Shown: positions 8,706 through 64,000 of the stretch, in pieces | How positions within the stretch are numbered: position 1 is the stretch's first letter | Layout of the letters: each line of letters begins with the position of its first letter | DNA from: a virus | Taxonomy: Duplodnaviria > Heunggongvirae > Uroviricota > Caudoviricetes | Direction: 5' to 3' (one strand) | Virus record (IMG/VR): IMGVR_UViG_2724679237_000005 | Coordinates: 44,631-108,630 of that record | DNA: 64,000 nt | Notes under the pieces: model-generated | What the model was told of the DNA's origin: nothing | Seen by the model: only the letters and a program-made list of their open reading frames with translations | Database searches by the model: none | Made by a program: the position numbers and the translations under genes

Positions 8706-9875
8706 TCACGTCTTAATAGTTTCTGCTACGTCGGCTAATATCGCTTCTAGTCGTTCTCCCTCTTCAGGTCTGAAGTAAAGAATGTTGGGGTTAAACCCGT
8801 AAAAGACAGTAACGTCAAGGTCTGGAAGATACTCCTTCCTGCCGACCAAATCGGATGGCTTGTTTTTGTTGTTAAACAATGCCGTTGCCCGGCTGCCACA
8901 CGTCAGCACATAGGTCGGACGCACCAGATTGATCTCTTCACGTATAAAGTCGGTGAACTGGCCGATCTCGTCTTTGGTGTAGTCTTTTTCTTTGTCTTTA
9001 ACCTTCTTGCAAACGCCTGTGACATAGAGATCGCCCATGCGTAAATCTCCAGCCGTCAATAGCTTGGCCTTAAAGTCGTCGTATCCGTTCTCCATAAAGT
9101 AACCGGTTCGAGCATCATTGCCGTTCGCATTGTCCAGAATGATCATGATTTTCGGCTTAATACCAATGCTGGGGCGGATTAGTTCATCACCTAAGCCCAT
9201 TTCAGCCGCCATCCGCGTCATGAGTACGTTAATTTCAGCCGAACGTTTGGGGTTCATCTCAAACGAACGTGAGGCTTTAACTGCGTCTATGACAAGATTT
9301 CCCATCAATTCAGCCTGGTCGCGTAGGCGCTCTGGAGCAGTTGCTGGCAGACTACCTGGCTCGATGGATGCAAACGCCCCTACTTTTTGCAGCGATTCGC
9401 GCACTCGACTATTACAGGCACGTTTCTCGACAGCTTCTTCGAATTGCGCCAGTGACTCGAATTTGCCGCCAACTTTTTCTCGCGCTCTCATGATGGCTTG
9501 GCAGCCATTCTCAGAACACCCCTTCACAGCAGAGAATGGCGCATACAGCACCTGGCTGCCATCTTCAAGCGTGCGGATCTCGATTCGGTTAGATGACACG
9601 TTAACGTCTGGTGGCAATACGCGAATTCCATAGGTCAGCGCATCTTTAACCAGCCCTTGGTGTTTATCTTCGCCAAGAATAGTGAGAGCAGCAGCGAAAA
9701 ACTCTGCGGGATAATGAGTTTTCAACCACATAGATTGATAACTGATTAAGGAGTAAGCAACAGAGTGTGATTTGTTGAAGGCATACGCGCCGGATTTCTC
9801 AAACATATTCCAGATTTCTTCGGCTCGTTCGTGCGTCAGGCCATTGCTCTCTTCAACTACACTGGTAATTTTCAT
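8706..9875 (-). CDS. dnaE: DNA polymerase III alpha (DnaE), C-terminal fragment
   Basis: Contains the DnaE fingers signature AYAFNKSHSVAYSLISYQSMWLKTHYPAEFFAA; own ATG overlapping stop of HNH ORF. Confidence 0.8.
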   Translation of the reverse strand: MKITSVVEESNGLTHERAEEIWNMFEKSGAYAFNKSHSVAYSLISYQSMWLKTHYPAEFFAAALTILGEDKHQGLVKDALTYGIRVLPPDVNVSSNRIEIRTLEDGSQVLYAPFSAVKGCSENGCQAIMRAREKVGGKFESLAQFEEAVEKRACNSRVRESLQKVGAFASIEPGSLPATAPERLRDQAELMGNLVIDAVKASRSFEMNPKRSAEINVLMTRMAAEMGLGDELIRPSIGIKPKIMIILDNANGNDARTGYFMENGYDDFKAKLLTAGDLRMGDLYVTGVCKKVKDKEKDYTKDEIGQFTDFIREEINLVRPTYVLTCGSRATALFNNKNKPSDLVGRKEYLPDLDVTVFYGFNPNILYFRPEEGERLEAILADVAETIKT

Positions 9876-10606
9876 TCAGTCACCTCATCAATCTTCACGA
9901 ACTCATACCCATTGGAGGCCAGCCAGTCCCGCTGGCGCTCCCAGCTCCATACCTTTTCACGCATTTCGCTATGCAGGCGAATGTGGGCGTCTTCTGGAAG
10001 TGCCACCAGATTCCCAGGGGCGTTATCTACCGTATCGCGGTTAATATGGTGGACATGTTCATCGTCACGTAGCTCCCGACCGAGACGTTCTTTCGCTATC
10101 AACCGATGAACGTATTCGTATTGCGAAACGCCATTGTTACCAACCAGCTGCATCATGTAGCCGTTGGTTTTTACGATGATGCCATCTTTGTAGTTGTTCG
10201 CTTCTTCTCCGATCTTTCCGCGTTTGGCAGCCGCCAGCTTTTCCTTCGTCTCCGCGCGGATTGTTCTGCCGGTTAGCTTTTTCGAAACGGTGGCCACTCG
10301 CTCATCGATATCAGCACGCAGACCGGCATTCCACGAGGTTTTCCCATACATAGGGTTGCCAGTGCCAGTCCGGGCTTCGGAGAGTCGCTTCATACGTTCG
10401 TCATTATTTTTGTTTTTGCCACGATTCCAGGCTGGGGTAGCGGAGATCCGCGCGTTTCCGCGCCTGATCCCCCATTTGGCTAATAAGCGGTCAATATTTG
10501 CCTTGCTGCAACCAGCTTCGGCGGCAATGTCTTCTTTTCTCATCAGGTCAACCATGTAACGCTGACGTAACCATTCTTCTGTGATTTTGTACTTCGTACT
10601 CGGCAT
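9872..10606 (-). CDS. HNH homing endonuclease inserted within dnaE
   Basis: C-terminal HNH motif EHVHHINRDTVDNAPGNLVALPEDAHIRLH; N-terminal NUMOD-like stretches (GKTSWNAGL, RAETKEKLAAAKRG); sits between the two dnaE fragments. Confidence 0.8.
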   Translation of the reverse strand: MPSTKYKITEEWLRQRYMVDLMRKEDIAAEAGCSKANIDRLLAKWGIRRGNARISATPAWNRGKNKNNDERMKRLSEARTGTGNPMYGKTSWNAGLRADIDERVATVSKKLTGRTIRAETKEKLAAAKRGKIGEEANNYKDGIIVKTNGYMMQLVGNNGVSQYEYVHRLIAKERLGRELRDDEHVHHINRDTVDNAPGNLVALPEDAHIRLHSEMREKVWSWERQRDWLASNGYEFVKIDEVTE

Positions 10607-10654
10607 TTCTAAGACTCACTAAACAAATTGTTTTCTTATCTTATAAATTAATTC

Positions 10655-13018
10655 TCAAATATCGAAGCTCGTTATGTCGGCATTTATTGCCATTGCTTCG
10701 GCATAAGTGCGACGCTCACCATCAGCACAAAGTAGGCGTGCTGCTTTATGGATTTTTCTCGTAGAACCGTCATCCAGTGACACTGTCACCCAGCCTTCCT
10801 CCGCTCGCTTAATGAAGTCGCCGCCAATGGATTTCATTTTCTCCATATCTTTTTTCCCGATCGCTTTCCTGACCGAGTCTGCTTCCGCCATTGAGAACCC
10901 CGCCAAGATTCGCGTAGCAGCCATGATCTGTTCCTGATAAATCAGAACACCGTTTGTGTCGCGAGAGATGTCGTCCAGCATAGGGTGTAAGGAATGTGGA
11001 GCCATGAAGCCTTTGGCCACGGAGACATAGTCGTCCAACATGCCGGATTGAATCGGGCCTGGTCGGAAGAGTGCGGTCGTGGCGACAACGGTCTTGAAGC
11101 TCATTGGCTCGATGCCACCGCCCAGATCTTTAAGCAACTTACGCATGGGGCCGGACTCCAGCTGGAATACGCCCTGCGTGTACCCTGCAGCGAACCCATC
11201 CAGAACCTTGCGATCGTCCAGTGGGATAGCGTCGAGATTGATATCTTCACCTGTGTTCTCTTTTATGTAGCGTTTTGCACTATCGAGCAAATCGAGAGTT
11301 GCCAGGCCAAGCACGTCCAGCTTAATTAGGCCCATAGCCTCGCAGTAACGCTTGTCAAATGCGATACAACGCGCGTCACCACGTCGTTCAACCGGTGTAC
11401 GTTCTGTCAGAGGAACACCTGCTACGATCATCCCTGCCGCATGTCTACCAAAGCCACGCATAAGGCTTTGTAACTTGCAGGCTGCATTGAATGCATCAGG
11501 ATATTTTGTTGCGTATTTGTCGAGACTTGCCAGTTGTTCGCGCAGTTCTTCCAATGGAAGGCTATCATCCTCAGCGTTCTTCAGTTCTTTTGATACCGCC
11601 ATATCTGCGGACTCCACACCATAAATACGAGCGGTGTCACGTAGTGCAGAGGCTGCGCCCAGGTAGGTGAAGTTCGGAATGCCTGCAACGTAATCTTCGC
11701 CGTAGCGTTCATTCAGATACTCGATCACCTCATGGCGACGTGCCTGGCTGAAGTCCAAATCCGCATCTGGCAAGTCGAGACGCTCAGGGTTGATGAAACG
11801 CTCAAACAGAAGACCGTGACGGATTGGGTCGACGTTGGTTATGCCTATGCACCACGCCACCAGAGAACCGGCAGAGGAACCACGACCAGGCCCAACGGGA
11901 ATGCCAGTTTCACGACTATGATTCATCAGATCGCGCACCATCAGGAAGTAACCACAGAATCCCAGGCGAGTCAGCGTGTCCATTTCGTACTTTAGCCGCT
12001 CAACATAAACCCTGTTCTCAGAAGCAGGTGGTGTGTATCCAAACTCTTTTGTGGTAAGACGTTTACGCAGCCCTGCAACAGCCAGTTTCATCAGCGTTGC
12101 AGGTTCGTCGTCTGCCATCTTGGGCAGTGCTGGTGGCAATTCATGCCAGCGCCATGTGCAGGAATCGATAATGGTATCCTGCGTTGTTGAGGCCATTGCA
12201 GCTGTTACAGGCACATCCATGCGAACGGAGAAGGCTTTAAGCGCCTCAAGGAGATGGCGGCGACCATTGACGGCGTTATCTCGCTGGTGGGGGATACGCA
12301 GACGATGCGGCTGGTCGATTTTGATGTTGTTCGTAACCATGTGCGCAATGTCTTTAATGTCTGCATCGTCGATCGATTCGTAATAAGCGGGATAGAACGC
12401 CACTGGCTCTATTTTCAATGCGCTGGCGACTTTCATCGCCCGGACGTTAATCTGGTCGTAGAATGGGGTAGGGTGCGGATAAACCACACTATAGAAGTTG
12501 TCTTTTCCACCCGCTGTAATCAGTGTGCTTATGATTTTTGCAAAATCGTTGCGTTGGAACACGCTACCGATGTCGGAAGTAAGCAGGATGATGTTGCCTT
12601 TGGCATATGTAGAAACCAACTGTTCGAGCGAGAGACGCGGTACAAAGTAGAACTGTTCTCGTGTGTTGGCCGCCGTCATTAGTTCGCAGATGTCGCGATA
12701 TCCTTGCTCATTTTTAATTAGAGCGGTAAACGAGTAGTTACGTCCCCGCTCTAATGATTCCATACATCTCATAGATTCTTTAGCAAGTTTAGCCCGGTGC
12801 TCGTATGTGGGATCATCAACAATGTTTAGTTTCACACCACAAATAACCGCCATGTCGTCACCAGCGGCACGTTGTAGTGGAATAACGCTCGCAATATTCA
12901 TGCTATCTGCTGAAATTACAGCGGTGTAGCCAGCTTCTCTGGCAATCTTCACCGCGTTTTCTGCTTTTAGAGCCGACTCCCCAAGTGAGAAGTCAGTTCG
13001 AACCATCAGTGCCTTCAT
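10655..13018 (-). CDS. dnaE: DNA polymerase III alpha (DnaE), N-terminal fragment (PHP and polymerase core)
   Basis: Palm motif GYFLMVRDLMNHSRETGIPVGPGRGSSAGSLVAWCIGITNVDP and LFERFINPERLDLPDADLDF; ends just before the fingers FNKSHS motif, which is found in the downstream fragment. Confidence 0.85.
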   Translation of the reverse strand: MKALMVRTDFSLGESALKAENAVKIAREAGYTAVISADSMNIASVIPLQRAAGDDMAVICGVKLNIVDDPTYEHRAKLAKESMRCMESLERGRNYSFTALIKNEQGYRDICELMTAANTREQFYFVPRLSLEQLVSTYAKGNIILLTSDIGSVFQRNDFAKIISTLITAGGKDNFYSVVYPHPTPFYDQINVRAMKVASALKIEPVAFYPAYYESIDDADIKDIAHMVTNNIKIDQPHRLRIPHQRDNAVNGRRHLLEALKAFSVRMDVPVTAAMASTTQDTIIDSCTWRWHELPPALPKMADDEPATLMKLAVAGLRKRLTTKEFGYTPPASENRVYVERLKYEMDTLTRLGFCGYFLMVRDLMNHSRETGIPVGPGRGSSAGSLVAWCIGITNVDPIRHGLLFERFINPERLDLPDADLDFSQARRHEVIEYLNERYGEDYVAGIPNFTYLGAASALRDTARIYGVESADMAVSKELKNAEDDSLPLEELREQLASLDKYATKYPDAFNAACKLQSLMRGFGRHAAGMIVAGVPLTERTPVERRGDARCIAFDKRYCEAMGLIKLDVLGLATLDLLDSAKRYIKENTGEDINLDAIPLDDRKVLDGFAAGYTQGVFQLESGPMRKLLKDLGGGIEPMSFKTVVATTALFRPGPIQSGMLDDYVSVAKGFMAPHSLHPMLDDISRDTNGVLIYQEQIMAATRILAGFSMAEADSVRKAIGKKDMEKMKSIGGDFIKRAEEGWVTVSLDDGSTRKIHKAARLLCADGERRTYAEAMAINADITSFDI

Positions 13019-16638: not shown

Positions 16639-16736
16639 GGCTAATCCTTTGTTATGAAAACAAATTATTTACTAGTGTGTTTAATGTAGCACTGCGCGAA
16701 CAGGGAACTAAGCCATTCGCGCAGGGAGAAGAGGGG

Positions 16737-30163: not shown

Positions 30164-30208
30164 GTGCTTTCCTTTGTTTTTTTTAAACAAATTGTTTTCT
30201 AGTATTAG

Positions 30209-33078: not shown

Positions 33079-33231
33079 TGGAGAGTTCCCTTTGCGTATA
33101 TAATTATCGTCTGAAACAACTTGTTTTCTTATATGTGATATAGCCTAAATGCCTACGGCTGTGGTGTAAAGGTTAAATGGTAGGTGCTGCCTTAGAATTT
33201 TTAGGCGAGAATCAATGGCTGTTAACAAAAA

Positions 33232-44600: not shown

Positions 44601-46400
44601 GATGCGAACGCGCATAGGTTCGAGATCTGGTTCTGTAATTGTCCAGACACCGTTCAAAACAGGCGTTTCCGCTGACGACAGGGCTTTTGAAAACGTAACC
44701 TTTGTTATGTTTTCGCCAGTTTCAAGAACATCGCGTTCAACGATTTTGCCTTCCTGATTCAATATCCGAATAAAGCTGCCGCTTTTAGCTAACGACACAG
44801 GCGCATCGAGAGTGATGCTGTTTTTGGTAAACTCCACAATTCGACCGGAGTTACGTTTACCTGCACGATATTTGTTCTGAATCAGAACGGTTTCACCAGG
44901 CATCAGAAATGAGGCGTCTAAGCCGGCAGTAAATGTAATTACATCCGACTCCATTCTGGCGGTATACAAAAGCCACAAACCAACTCGGTGAGCCTGGCCT
45001 CGGCTTGTACATCCAAATGCTACGACTTCTGTTTTACGCTCACCATAACGGCGCATTGCGTCCTGATCTTCAACGTATTCGATGTTTTGCTTATAACCGT
45101 CCTCCTTGTTGTTGTAGGTTACGAGCGCAACGGATGGGCGATCTTTACGCGCAGAACCTTTATAGGTAAACAGTCCATCTTTGACGTTGGAGTTGGTAAA
45201 CATCATTACCGGATCTGATGGGCTATCCTGCATGATGTTAACCATGCCACCAGCCCAAAACACCATGCCGCGGAATGCACCGGCAATATCCTGAATTAAT
45301 CGGTATGCGTCTTGTCGACTGGTGATCTGCGTATTGATTGCAAAGCGTTTCTCTTTACCCCCAAAGCCATCATCGACCTCTTCGTCACAATATCGACCAA
45401 TCTGGTAGAGCTGGCCGAGGTCAATCATGGATTCCGACACAAATTGCCCAAGACCATACCGAGTATTGGTAAGCAAATCGTAGAGAATCCACGCAGGGTT
45501 TGAAGAAGACAACAGCTTAAAAGTACCGTCCCATACGCCGACATAAGTATTGGTGTATTCGTTGTAGTTTGACGGTACTCGGATTTTGATACCGCGCACC
45601 AAATACGAACGGGAAGGCATTGTGCTACCAAACTGCTCTGAATTGACCTTCAAGCCAACAAGAGCAGAGTTAGGGTAGTTCATTGGCGTGTCGACAATCT
45701 CACCTATGGAATCAACCCATGTGTCGTTGTAGAGGTACTGGCTACTGTTATCATCTGTAAGACGAATCACCCTAACCTTGTATGCACGACCAGGCTTAGG
45801 TAGTTTCAGCTCATAGCTACGGTAATACACGCCTGTTTTCTTTGCCGTTAGCGTGATATCAACGCTTTTTTCACCTTCAGCGACCACATCTACAAATGTT
45901 GAGTCGCCATTTGCTATCTGGAACTTGTACTCAACAGTCGTACCGTTCGTGTCACCAGTTTTTTTATCTATGCTTCGCAAAGAAGGAAACTTCATGATGA
46001 CACGAACCCGATCAGCTTCATCGTTATCGATTGAAACCGTTACATAATGTGTTTTTTTTAACTGGATATTGACGGATTTAGGCGTTTCAACGAAATCAAA
46101 GCCAGACATTGGAGTCTGGTCTTGTGAACCGTCGCGAAAATCCCATGTGATTCCGCTGAAGTTGGAGGAACCGTCTTCATTTACAATCGGCAGATCGTCG
46201 ATAAAAATAGATCTTGCGCCATTTACTAAGCCGCCAATTACCCCTTCCCCAAGAAGATCGAGGATAGCGGCCATTGCACGAGAATTTACGGTATCGTCGG
46301 CTTCAACCGGTGTACGGCTGGAGCTTTTGCTGCTTTTTTTACCACCCGCACCGGCAATAAACAGCGGTAGCTTTTTCTTCTTGAACTGTTCCATGTTCAA
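41667..46400 (-). CDS. J: central tail fibre / tip attachment protein J-like
   Basis: Strong similarity to lambda J core (ALVGLKVNSEQFGS, AFGCTSRGQAHRVGLWLL, KYVAGIALGIDT...SQFLV); contains a run of 33-aa coiled-coil repeats. Confidence 0.8.
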   Translation of the reverse strand: MNMEQFKKKKLPLFIAGAGGKKSSKSSSRTPVEADDTVNSRAMAAILDLLGEGVIGGLVNGARSIFIDDLPIVNEDGSSNFSGITWDFRDGSQDQTPMSGFDFVETPKSVNIQLKKTHYVTVSIDNDEADRVRVIMKFPSLRSIDKKTGDTNGTTVEYKFQIANGDSTFVDVVAEGEKSVDITLTAKKTGVYYRSYELKLPKPGRAYKVRVIRLTDDNSSQYLYNDTWVDSIGEIVDTPMNYPNSALVGLKVNSEQFGSTMPSRSYLVRGIKIRVPSNYNEYTNTYVGVWDGTFKLLSSSNPAWILYDLLTNTRYGLGQFVSESMIDLGQLYQIGRYCDEEVDDGFGGKEKRFAINTQITSRQDAYRLIQDIAGAFRGMVFWAGGMVNIMQDSPSDPVMMFTNSNVKDGLFTYKGSARKDRPSVALVTYNNKEDGYKQNIEYVEDQDAMRRYGERKTEVVAFGCTSRGQAHRVGLWLLYTARMESDVITFTAGLDASFLMPGETVLIQNKYRAGKRNSGRIVEFTKNSITLDAPVSLAKSGSFIRILNQEGKIVERDVLETGENITKVTFSKALSSAETPVLNGVWTITEPDLEPMRVRIVNIAQGETPGSFDITAVENNPSKYEAIDNGATLIPQNTTVLDPTYSKPSNLQITEGTYLSSPGNLSVKLTATWEGKSPEYWISWRRSDENNVSNWQSARVTEEQYEIVNVAENGRYDFQLYAVSFNGKKTEIISTVYQVLGTMTPPDAPTSLTAVGDYRNVILNWVNPDSVDLDHINVYASQTNNLDTAKLIAESASTTFTHAGLGDSETWYYWVRASNKRGMLSPPNSNLGTEATTRDVLSFLAGKITSSELGQALLEDINSKASQEAVDELNEHINQSVESLEGSVNDVKEDIAELDKQFSDNLAGFEIKFNERSDALENAQTELKGEVSATIDKVNEAFEKIDATDAAIVEIENTVSEHDKALANTVEAIKAARDEAAALIAKESEARVEGDAANAKQLEVLQSTVEESSAAVEEMKKTVAEVDRASAELTTNIEALAKTNIDLALRQDEDQHKQMVNNAKIATTQKTFADDMSAMATKVEEIRVEIGEDIKASILEESTARADGDEALAKRVTQLQSKFEGDISAAISTEQEARTSADEALTTQITQLESKVSNDIVAAIKEEQEARATEDSALASQITQLQAKVDDDISAAIRSEQEARASGDSALAKQINQLQSKVDGDISAAITQEQEARASADQALSREINSLRAQTGTDIAAAVAVETKARTDADSALSTQISSLTAKANDLEASLARETTARADGDTALTKEVSSLKAQTAKDISAAVAVETQARTDADSALSSQITKLTSQYKEDIKAAVATETKTRTEQDAALATQITNLESQTAANISAAVTTETTARTQADNALSGRIDTLKAEVDGNTATIQQQATAIADTNKKVSTAWTLKMETSTSGGQKYVAGIALGIDTTGLSQFLVQADRFGLVNSVNGKITTPFVIENSIAYMNGAYIKDGTITNAKVGDLQSTNFVSGRSGWRFGKNGTLEINGNSGGNGRLVINGQRIDVYDDNNVLRVRIGLL

Positions 46401-63931: not shown

Positions 63932-64000
63932 AGATCCCTCTAAAACACACAGAGCGCGTCCATGCGCTCTAAAACAACTTGTTTACTGCATCTGCTAACC

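Follow-up and report, generated by a model that had tools for sequence, protein, structure and literature searches.

A DNA polymerase gene in two pieces

We analysed a 64,000-nucleotide (nt) stretch of a Caudoviricetes record (positions 44,631 to 108,630 of IMG/VR entry IMGVR_UViG_2724679237_000005), hereafter the window, which belongs to an SSU5/pHCM2-like phage-plasmid of Enterobacteriaceae. On its minus strand, the gene for the alpha subunit of DNA polymerase III (dnaE) is present as two open reading frames (ORFs), dnaE-N and dnaE-C, with a gene for an HNH endonuclease between them. In the reading that we consider probable, the gene is split by a mobile cassette, consisting of the HNH gene and the two flanking pieces of a split-intein relic that no longer splices, and the polymerase works as two polypeptides. 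The parts of the locus, in gene order and with lengths in amino acids (aa) or nt, are:

13018..10655, minus strand: dnaE-N ORF, 787 aa, with PHP, DNA_pol3_alpha and DNA_pol3_finger (Pfam)
10793..13018, minus strand: dnaE-N core, residues 1-742, with PHP, palm/NTPase and most of the fingers, terminating ...FIKRAEEG
10655..10792, minus strand: tail, 45 codons WVTVSLDDGSTRKIHKAARLLCADGERRTYAEAMAINADITSFDI plus TGA stop, characterised by profile, Foldseek and pN/pS
10607..10654, minus strand: leader, 48 nt from the dnaE-N stop to the HNH start, holding the palindrome AAACAA-T-TTGTTT (10621-10633)
9872..10606, minus strand: HNH/NUMOD3 gene, here called HEG-A, 244 aa (Pfam HNH_3 7.9e-8, NUMOD3 2.7e-6)
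9881..9886, minus strand: Shine-Dalgarno sequence GAGGTG of dnaE-C, inside the last HNH codons, 6 nt to the ATG
9875..8706, minus strand: dnaE-C ORF, 389 aa (Pfam HHH_6 5.2e-17, UDG 0.0034)
9843..9875, minus strand: head MKITSVVEESN, dnaE-C codons 1-11, conserved in C-fragments; the profile alignment reaches the C-terminal intein fragment (IntC)
8706..9842, minus strand: dnaE-C core, 378 codons plus stop, with the remaining fingers including FNKSHS, a helix-hairpin-helix and a C-terminal domain like the uracil-DNA glycosylase (UDG) family

The original prediction, that an HNH gene splits dnaE here, is correct in all its coordinates and sequence statements. The 787-aa ORF carries the PHP and palm regions (core E-values 4e-74 for DNA_pol3_alpha and 1.8e-45 for DNA_pol3_finger) and stops 44 residues past KRAEEGW. 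The 244-aa HNH ORF has its own start 48 nt after that stop, and its stop codon overlaps the dnaE-C start as ATGA; in the protein, an N-terminal DNA-binding region with NUMOD3 precedes a C-terminal HNH_3 domain. The dnaE-C protein starts MKITSVVEESNG-LTHERAEEIWNMFEKSGAYAFNKSHS. Its C-terminal ~150 aa (window 8706-9300) are the UDG-family-like domain, assigned to PF03167 in most relatives and standing where cellular DnaE has its OB-fold and tau-binding C-terminus; the Prokaryotic Genome Annotation Pipeline (PGAP) sometimes names the whole C-fragment 'uracil-DNA glycosylase'.

Alignment to intact homologues identified the two ORFs as colinear halves of one gene, not unrelated paralogues. The intact gene of PhiR41_1, SSU5 and CMS-2020a is a single ORF of 1172 or 1168 codons; dnaE-N residues 1-782 correspond to residues 1-782 of PhiR41_1 and dnaE-C residues 6-389 to its residues 789-1172, at 93-95% identity. 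The net insertion relative to intact alleles is 806 nt, and DNA similarity is lost across window 9826-10775. Extra residues at the junction had also been pointed out. They are present, but they are extra only with respect to cellular DnaE and native to this polymerase lineage, in which the tail and head (together, the module) are found fused in frame in intact members.

The arrangement is not a sequencing artefact, since the 787/244/389 structure recurs in other plasmids and genomes. It was found in 26 PLSDB plasmids and in 23 of the 5,426 complete E. coli genomes (each time on a plasmid and in single copy); there are also Enterobacter and Cronobacter copies, with a DNA identity of 85-89%. These numbers correspond to 26 of ~745 PLSDB plasmids with this dnaE and to 23 of 243 E. 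coli carriers. A second type of endonuclease (HEG-B, see below) splits the gene in another 243 PLSDB plasmids; of the ~745-811 with this dnaE, about one in three has the split, both types taken together.

Selection and translation signals

Purifying selection acts on both halves and on the module. Among split alleles of four genera, the ratio of nonsynonymous to synonymous substitution rates (dN/dS) lies at 0.03-0.06 in dnaE-N and at 0.02-0.07 in dnaE-C, dS reaching values >1, and the 787/389 lengths are preserved in Escherichia, Enterobacter, Cronobacter, Klebsiella, Buttiauxella and deep metagenomic relatives. The corresponding ratio of polymorphisms (pN/pS) of the module is 0.05-0.15 within the cassette lineage (57 codons, window versus Cronobacter: 15 synonymous and 3 nonsynonymous changes). 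In public annotation the split is invisible: PGAP/RefSeq (NZ_CP070135.1; locus L005, 3952-5070; other copies) labels dnaE-C a pseudogene, 'incomplete; missing N-terminus', and dnaE-N a complete dnaE. Taken at face value, this flag would mean a decaying gene, an inactive polymerase and a host replisome doing the work, and the insertion sequence IS100 (istA/istB) inside the fused dnaE of two E. coli plasmids (NZ_CP035843.1 and NZ_CP070074.1, hits H58 and H70) could be cited in the same sense. Against such decay stand the preserved ORF lengths in five genera and deep metagenomic relatives, the low dN/dS at high dS, the conserved Shine-Dalgarno sequence and ATG of dnaE-C, and the frequency of the split among PLSDB plasmids; we regard a pseudogene as highly unlikely.

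The dnaE-C gene has its own ATG with GAGGTG 6 nt upstream, and equivalents (AGGTGG or GAGG) precede it in Buttiauxella and in related loci L016, L078, L057 and L012. Two options had been put forward for the locus, a group I intron and a free-standing endonuclease gene that left the polymerase as two polypeptides, with preference for the second. Phage polymerase genes are known hosts of group I introns with HNH genes, and an HNH gene with its own start inside a conserved gene is what such an intron would look like; the mRNA would self-splice and yield one contiguous DnaE. However, a covariance-model search of 9500-11100 gave no Rfam match at E<=10. Only 48 nt of the interruption are non-coding, the HNH stop overlaps the next ATG, and the ~70-nt spacers of HNH-less split alleles (69 nt in Buttiauxella) are too short for an intron core. 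Furthermore, dnaE-C has a conserved Shine-Dalgarno sequence and ATG of its own, the amino-acid sequence of the head is conserved, tail and head are both under purifying selection as protein sequences, and the frame relations vary. No intron is present by these measures, and we give the intron option practically no weight. The free-standing endonuclease with two polymerase polypeptides is supported by the separate starts, the purifying selection and the occurrence elsewhere of the split without an endonuclease.

Recoding was considered as well. The HNH gene of the window is in frame with dnaE-N, with one stop and 16 codons between them, but this match is a coincidence: from locus to locus, the HNH gene and dnaE-C stand in varying frames with respect to dnaE-N, and there can therefore be no general readthrough or frameshift fusion. 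Translational bypass of the T4 gene 60 type, for which ATT (window) or GTT (Klebsiella) before the stop and early in dnaE-C would be the candidate codon, was rejected as implausible because ~790 nt would have to be skipped and the alleles have their landing positions in different places.

The leader is conserved in the Enterobacter, Cronobacter and avian pathogenic E. coli (APEC) copies, kept in the HNH-less Buttiauxella allele and present twice in L027. The operator-like motif that the original prediction had placed upstream of the HNH ORF is real, but it is a genome-wide palindrome found upstream of several genes. AAACAA-N-TTGTTT occurs five times in the window (0.4 expected; gene-strand context TA.AAGAAAACAA.TTGTTT), at

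10621-10633, 16658-16670, 30185-30197, 33114-33126 and 63972-63984,

and copies 1-4 precede the starts of minus-strand genes by about 20-45 nt. The palindrome, which the endonuclease-less spacers of Buttiauxella and L027 also keep, resembles a promoter or operator element shared by several phage genes. The leader RNA (10585-10675, minus strand) is predicted to form a modest hairpin spanning the region before the HNH start (-15.8 kcal/mol, z=-2.15), which recalls the masking of translation known from homing-endonuclease genes of phages. On the gene strand, the locus has no predicted terminator or sigma-70 promoter.

The module at the break is probably a split-intein relic

We compared split and intact genes at the junction. 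In deep intact genes the region reads ...FVAGAVKSGM...LW..FAGYxFNKSHS and the module is absent. All split genes have it, as ~44-45 residues added to the end of dnaE-N and ~11 to the start of dnaE-C, between ...GAxx(G/S) and G(M/L). In the Enterobacterales clade every member carries the module, either split or fused in frame, most SSU5-like plasmids having the fused form, and the in-frame fusions show at least three different joints (type A, 1172 aa; type B, 1168 aa; L029, 1193 aa). The intact SSU5-type genes therefore resemble split genes that have been healed. In PLSDB, a search for the window-type junction in uninterrupted form found none and returned the HNH-less Buttiauxella allele instead.

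A profile of the module (14 sequences, 56 positions) was searched against all PDB sequences (177,635). The 14 best matches were all DnaE inteins, with E=1.6e-5 to 1.2e-2, and the next match, an unrelated protein, had E=0.31; the reversed-sequence control gave 0 matches at E<=10. The intein entries are

7qil, 2keq, 4kl5, 4lx3, 4qfq, 5ol1/5/6/7, 1zd7, 1zde, 3nzm, 4gig and 4kl6.

The alignment covers intein residues ~57-107, from the block-B region through the end of the N-fragment and across the natural split site into the C-fragment, and the endonuclease gene sits at the position of that split site. At the level of sequence profiles this supports homology over that segment. The tail is then probably the vestigial C-terminal half of a split-intein N-fragment, from the block-B region to the split site, and the head the vestigial start of the C-fragment.

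Predicted structures agree. In the AlphaFold model of P0001, a 259-aa fused type-B fragment, the module is confident, compact and beta-rich, with a predicted local distance difference test score (pLDDT) of 92-96, and consists of beta-strands 34-39 and 44-48, two short bridges, a helix (63-69) and a long strand (73-80). The type-A protein P0186 (1172 aa) has the same element order at pLDDT ~80-92. After Pol III alpha itself, the sole high-probability Foldseek matches were DnaE inteins (0.91-0.98; best root-mean-square deviation 3.8 A over 65 columns).

Several results weigh against an intein origin. The intein matches in Foldseek have weak E-values (0.1-0.4), and since the program takes amino-acid identity into account as well, they are not wholly separate evidence from the profile search. 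Pfam scans of single module sequences matched no Hint or intein family; weak matches to the SH3-like Myosin_N family in 4 of the 14 modules were disregarded. An exhaustive phmmer search with the 45-aa tail returned polymerase tails and spurious matches only, the latter including MBG and LRR tandem-repeat proteins whose scores were summed over repeats, and no intein donor. No relative with a full-length intein at the dnaE site was found, which leaves the route from intein to relic conjectural. On these grounds the tail and head might be taken for element-derived tails like those of the NrdA protein of phage Aeh1 (see below), resembling inteins by chance through small beta-hairpin motifs. Chance would have to account, though, for the gap in E-values below the 14 intein matches together with the clean reversed control. 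It would also have to make the segment stop at the intein split site, which is at once the gene break and the place that endonucleases take in inteins, and let a structure search put the same inteins first among its non-polymerase matches. We consider a chance likeness unlikely.

We asked whether the relic could still splice. An HNH gene lies at the split site of a module that matches DnaE split inteins, and the intein-based fractured genes described by Dassa et al. (2009, PMC2677866) have an identical topology, so that trans-splicing to a canonical DnaE might be expected. However, the inteins of the fractured genes measure 88-105 plus 33-54 residues and have all five catalytic residues (PMC2677866), as against 45+11 residues here. 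Relative to an intein, ~55 residues are gone from the N-terminus and ~25 from the end of IntC. The module has no block A with its Cys/Ser1 (its first residue is W, Q, M, E or Y) and no blocks F and G with the terminal His-Asn; the block-B Thr position is a near-invariant His, the block-B His is not conserved, and the residue after the module is Gly, not the Cys, Ser or Thr of a +1 nucleophile. A splicing-competent intein would have these catalytic residues, be at least ~120 aa long and be cut out of the mature protein; fused alleles instead retain the module in frame, permanently and under purifying selection. From the missing blocks and residues and the 45+11 size we infer that protein splicing is excluded, and a functional split intein is accordingly a very improbable explanation.

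Signatures of a mobile cassette with an exchangeable endonuclease

HEG-A is a free-standing HNH gene: its ORF stands alone, begins at its own start codon and encodes both an HNH motif and a DNA-binding module. All 7 orthologues compared have the core EHVHHI..N.P.NL..H..LH unchanged. Its presence is polymorphic among close relatives at this one site. A block of 95-100% identity (~window 11000-9820) is centred on the HNH gene, with both flanks at 73-89% even between E. coli plasmids, and dS of the HNH gene is 0.02-0.38 versus 0.3-2.9 for the flanks (HNH dN/dS 0.17-0.45); the block is the signature of co-conversion, as judged from the sequence comparison. At the same site in more distant loci, HEG-A orthologues share 35-46% identity and the polymerase halves 36-56%. 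A word-based search with the HNH protein returned relatives at >=87% identity only and no new contexts.

HEG-B has the architecture NUMOD4-HNH_3-HTH and has only the HNH core in common with HEG-A (28% over 57 aa). It splits the gene of Klebsiella phage GArcari-2022b at the same codon (787+389), and it is found at the dnaE split site of Klebsiella, L016, L057, L070 and L078, conserved at 36-42% identity. Module subtypes cut across endonuclease type, the tail of L046 (HEG-A) being closest to that of L070 (HEG-B): in these alignments, what stays constant is the relic, and what is exchanged is the endonuclease.

The endonuclease can also be missing. In a Buttiauxella plasmid the gene is likewise split 787+389, but what separates the halves is a 69-nt spacer in place of the endonuclease gene; the spacer consists of the 48-nt leader, ATG TCA TGA and the last six HNH codons overlapping the dnaE-C start, which to judge from its sequence is the deletion footprint of the HNH gene. 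Further endonuclease-less split alleles are L027, also with a spacer of ~70 nt, L028 and L048. In L048 (4708-4994) the 287-nt gap between the halves contains a small ORF (MNTDTFTNKLNRRSEAVIQEE...GWWSN, ~56 aa).

The split extends to deep relatives. A protein search with the healed junction, in which matches up to 435 aa were listed (intact proteins come from the N-fragment query), gave dozens of C-fragments of 383-422 aa with identity down to ~40%, all beginning at one point with the head MK[IV]xS[VI]xPLxxG[ML]; conservation of the head extends to C-fragments of ~35-40% identity. The contigs of the distant C-fragments have the identical three-gene order, with AAA_5 upstream and gp32-like, 5'-3' exonuclease and RecA genes downstream. 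The 80 best IMG/VR loci, to which that comparison extended, are mostly intact, with HEG-A, HEG-B and endonuclease-less splits interspersed; in the polymerase tree each deep split locus has an intact sister and the split state is patchy. By these sequence comparisons the split arrangement is old. Because the split is scattered among intact, module-less sister genes and comes with two unrelated HNH families, the cassette shows the signatures of mobility, with the endonuclease as its putative cleaving enzyme and cassette-free alleles as the presumed target. The original prediction had reported a single interrupted gene. Beyond it, the break probably carries a vestigial split intein, belongs to an old, mobile and widespread arrangement rather than a one-off, and is used by a second, unrelated HNH family.

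Could the HNH protein be a domesticated partner, for example a polymerase accessory or regulator that is no longer a selfish homing enzyme? Its divergence does match that of the polymerase (35-46% versus 36-56% identity), its catalytic core is invariant and its dN/dS is 0.17-0.45. Yet near-identical plasmids differ in whether they have the gene, an unrelated HNH family takes its place at this site in other loci, and elsewhere it is lost while the split stays. The co-conversion block, the dS below that of the flanks and the patchy distribution on the host tree are likewise hallmarks of a mobile element. We therefore judge domestication to be quite improbable.

Other rearrangements were seen in this gene family. 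In proteins P0199, P0216, P0242 and P0108 (E. coli, Enterobacter), N-terminal parts of dnaE are fused to a RecA domain (PF00154; 879-1075 aa), probably through deletions joining dnaE to the downstream recA-like gene. In L012, a distant relative, a GIY-YIG/NUMOD3 gene (1-393), a second putative homing endonuclease gene, lies a few genes upstream of the split dnaE and adjoins a gene for a sigma-70 region-2 protein.

Proposed mechanism

We propose that the cassette was inserted into the fingers of a phage-plasmid DnaE, between ...GAxx(G/S) and G(M/L)..., in the order ~45 relic-N codons, stop, leader, HNH gene, Shine-Dalgarno sequence and ATG, and ~11 relic-C codons. The three genes are probably co-transcribed. 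The products of dnaE-N and dnaE-C would be translated apart and never joined, whether by RNA splicing, protein splicing or recoding, and the 787-aa and 389-aa proteins would work together as a two-polypeptide polymerase. Through its endonuclease the cassette, relic included, would be copied to related phages that have a cassette-free allele, and one and the same relic can house either of two unrelated HNH families. Loss of the endonuclease would leave either a bare split gene or an in-frame 'healed' gene with a ~50-aa relic insert, as in SSU5.

The relic has lost its chemistry but appears to keep the portion of the Hint fold next to the natural split site. Because the head strand is part of the module's beta-structure in the fused models, that structure would have to form in trans in split alleles, and the relic may thus be a non-covalent docking module, the beta-sheet of which is completed in trans by the dnaE-C head. 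A chemistry-free split intein, kept by selection as a 45 + 11 aa docking device in a mobile and healable gene-splitting cassette that does not inactivate its polymerases, is an idea that we advance tentatively, at somewhat short of even chances.

Some considerations speak against the two-polypeptide polymerase and its docking device. We infer both the association of the halves and the relic's part in it, the latter from the models. Genuine split inteins associate by 'capture and collapse', a process initiated by the C-fragment together with the disordered part of the N-fragment (PMC11766414); the relic lacks the entire N-terminal lobe of the Hint fold, and an intein-like association of this kind therefore cannot be assumed. 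Both fused AlphaFold models have a single terminal strand at the joint, not a two-strand hairpin, which is neutral for docking. Finally, with IS100 inside dnaE of some plasmids, the polymerase may be dispensable for plasmid maintenance, and selection may act in lytic growth only.

Comparison with known systems

Endonuclease-split genes and intein-based fractured genes are known already. In the searchable literature we found no non-splicing intein relic with exchangeable HNH endonucleases that runs across a polymerase family and is repeatedly healed, nor any paper tying SSU5 or pHCM2 to inteins; two phage-plasmid genomics papers do not treat dnaE or HNH genes. The cassette would link two routes by which fragmented phage genes survive, trans-splicing split inteins and element-derived interaction tails as in Aeh1 NrdA, and suggests that interaction tails can be intein remnants. 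If the docking proposal is true, the relic is a natural intermediate between the intein-based and the tail-based answers to gene fragmentation, and the 45+11-residue non-splicing pair could serve as a protein-assembly or heterodimerisation tag. This one gene family appears to document a cassette life cycle of invasion, endonuclease swapping, endonuclease loss and healing by fusion. The split is common in clinical Klebsiella, Enterobacter and E. coli plasmids, some with resistance genes, and the RefSeq label of the C-half, pseudogene or 'uracil-DNA glycosylase', misrepresents the replication module of such elements.

In fractured genes (Dassa et al. 2009, PMC2677866), which include three metagenomic DnaE loci, the halves of a split intein surround a free-standing endonuclease gene. 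The window shares with them the order of host-N plus intein-N, endonuclease, and intein-C plus host-C in one operon of a phage DNA-synthesis gene, the endonuclease at the canonical intein split site, and control elements that apparently arrive with the endonuclease. It differs in that the intein is cut to 45+11 residues without a splicing residue, so that the halves cannot ligate, and in that fused alleles hold the relic permanently. The endonuclease here is of the HNH type, whereas that paper found GIY-YIG and Vsr-like enzymes and HNH was only predicted, and the cassette enters the fingers ~20 residues before FNKSHS.

The nrdA gene of Aeromonas phage Aeh1 is split by mobE, and the element-derived tails are essential for assembly (Friedrich et al. 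2007; Crona et al. 2010, PMC3045599). There too a free-standing HNH endonuclease splits an essential DNA-metabolism gene and overlaps the downstream fragment, nothing is spliced, and the enzyme assembles from two polypeptides (PMC3045599), which is what we propose for the window DnaE. The window has the corresponding features: colinear adjacent ORFs with an endonuclease between them, element-derived tails at the new termini, and both fragments under selection with their own translation signals. Unlike the Aeh1 case, known from a single phage, the cassette here runs across a polymerase family, in members as distant as ~35-40% identity. It comes with two endonuclease families, and its tails have a recognisable origin in an intein and may serve the docking proposed above.

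A replicative polymerase encoded by adjacent genes has a precedent in gene 43 of Aeromonas phages 25 and 44RR, split as 43A/43B, the halves of which co-purify and are active (Petrov et al. 2006, reviewed in PMC2988022). A seg endonuclease lies between the halves in one phage and only an untranslated spacer in its relative (PMC2988022), which parallels the HNH-bearing and HNH-less split alleles of this dnaE. The polymerase here is a C-family DnaE, in contrast to the B-family gp43, for which no intein-derived module was reported.

The split DnaE intein of cyanobacteria (Ssp and Npu DnaE) is the closest relative of the module in sequence and structure, and its host is also a DnaE, broken in the same part of the fingers. 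The cyanobacterial intein is integrated immediately before CFNKSHS, ~20 residues downstream of the window site. Its halves, unlike those of the window, stand at separate loci, are complete inteins and are trans-spliced.

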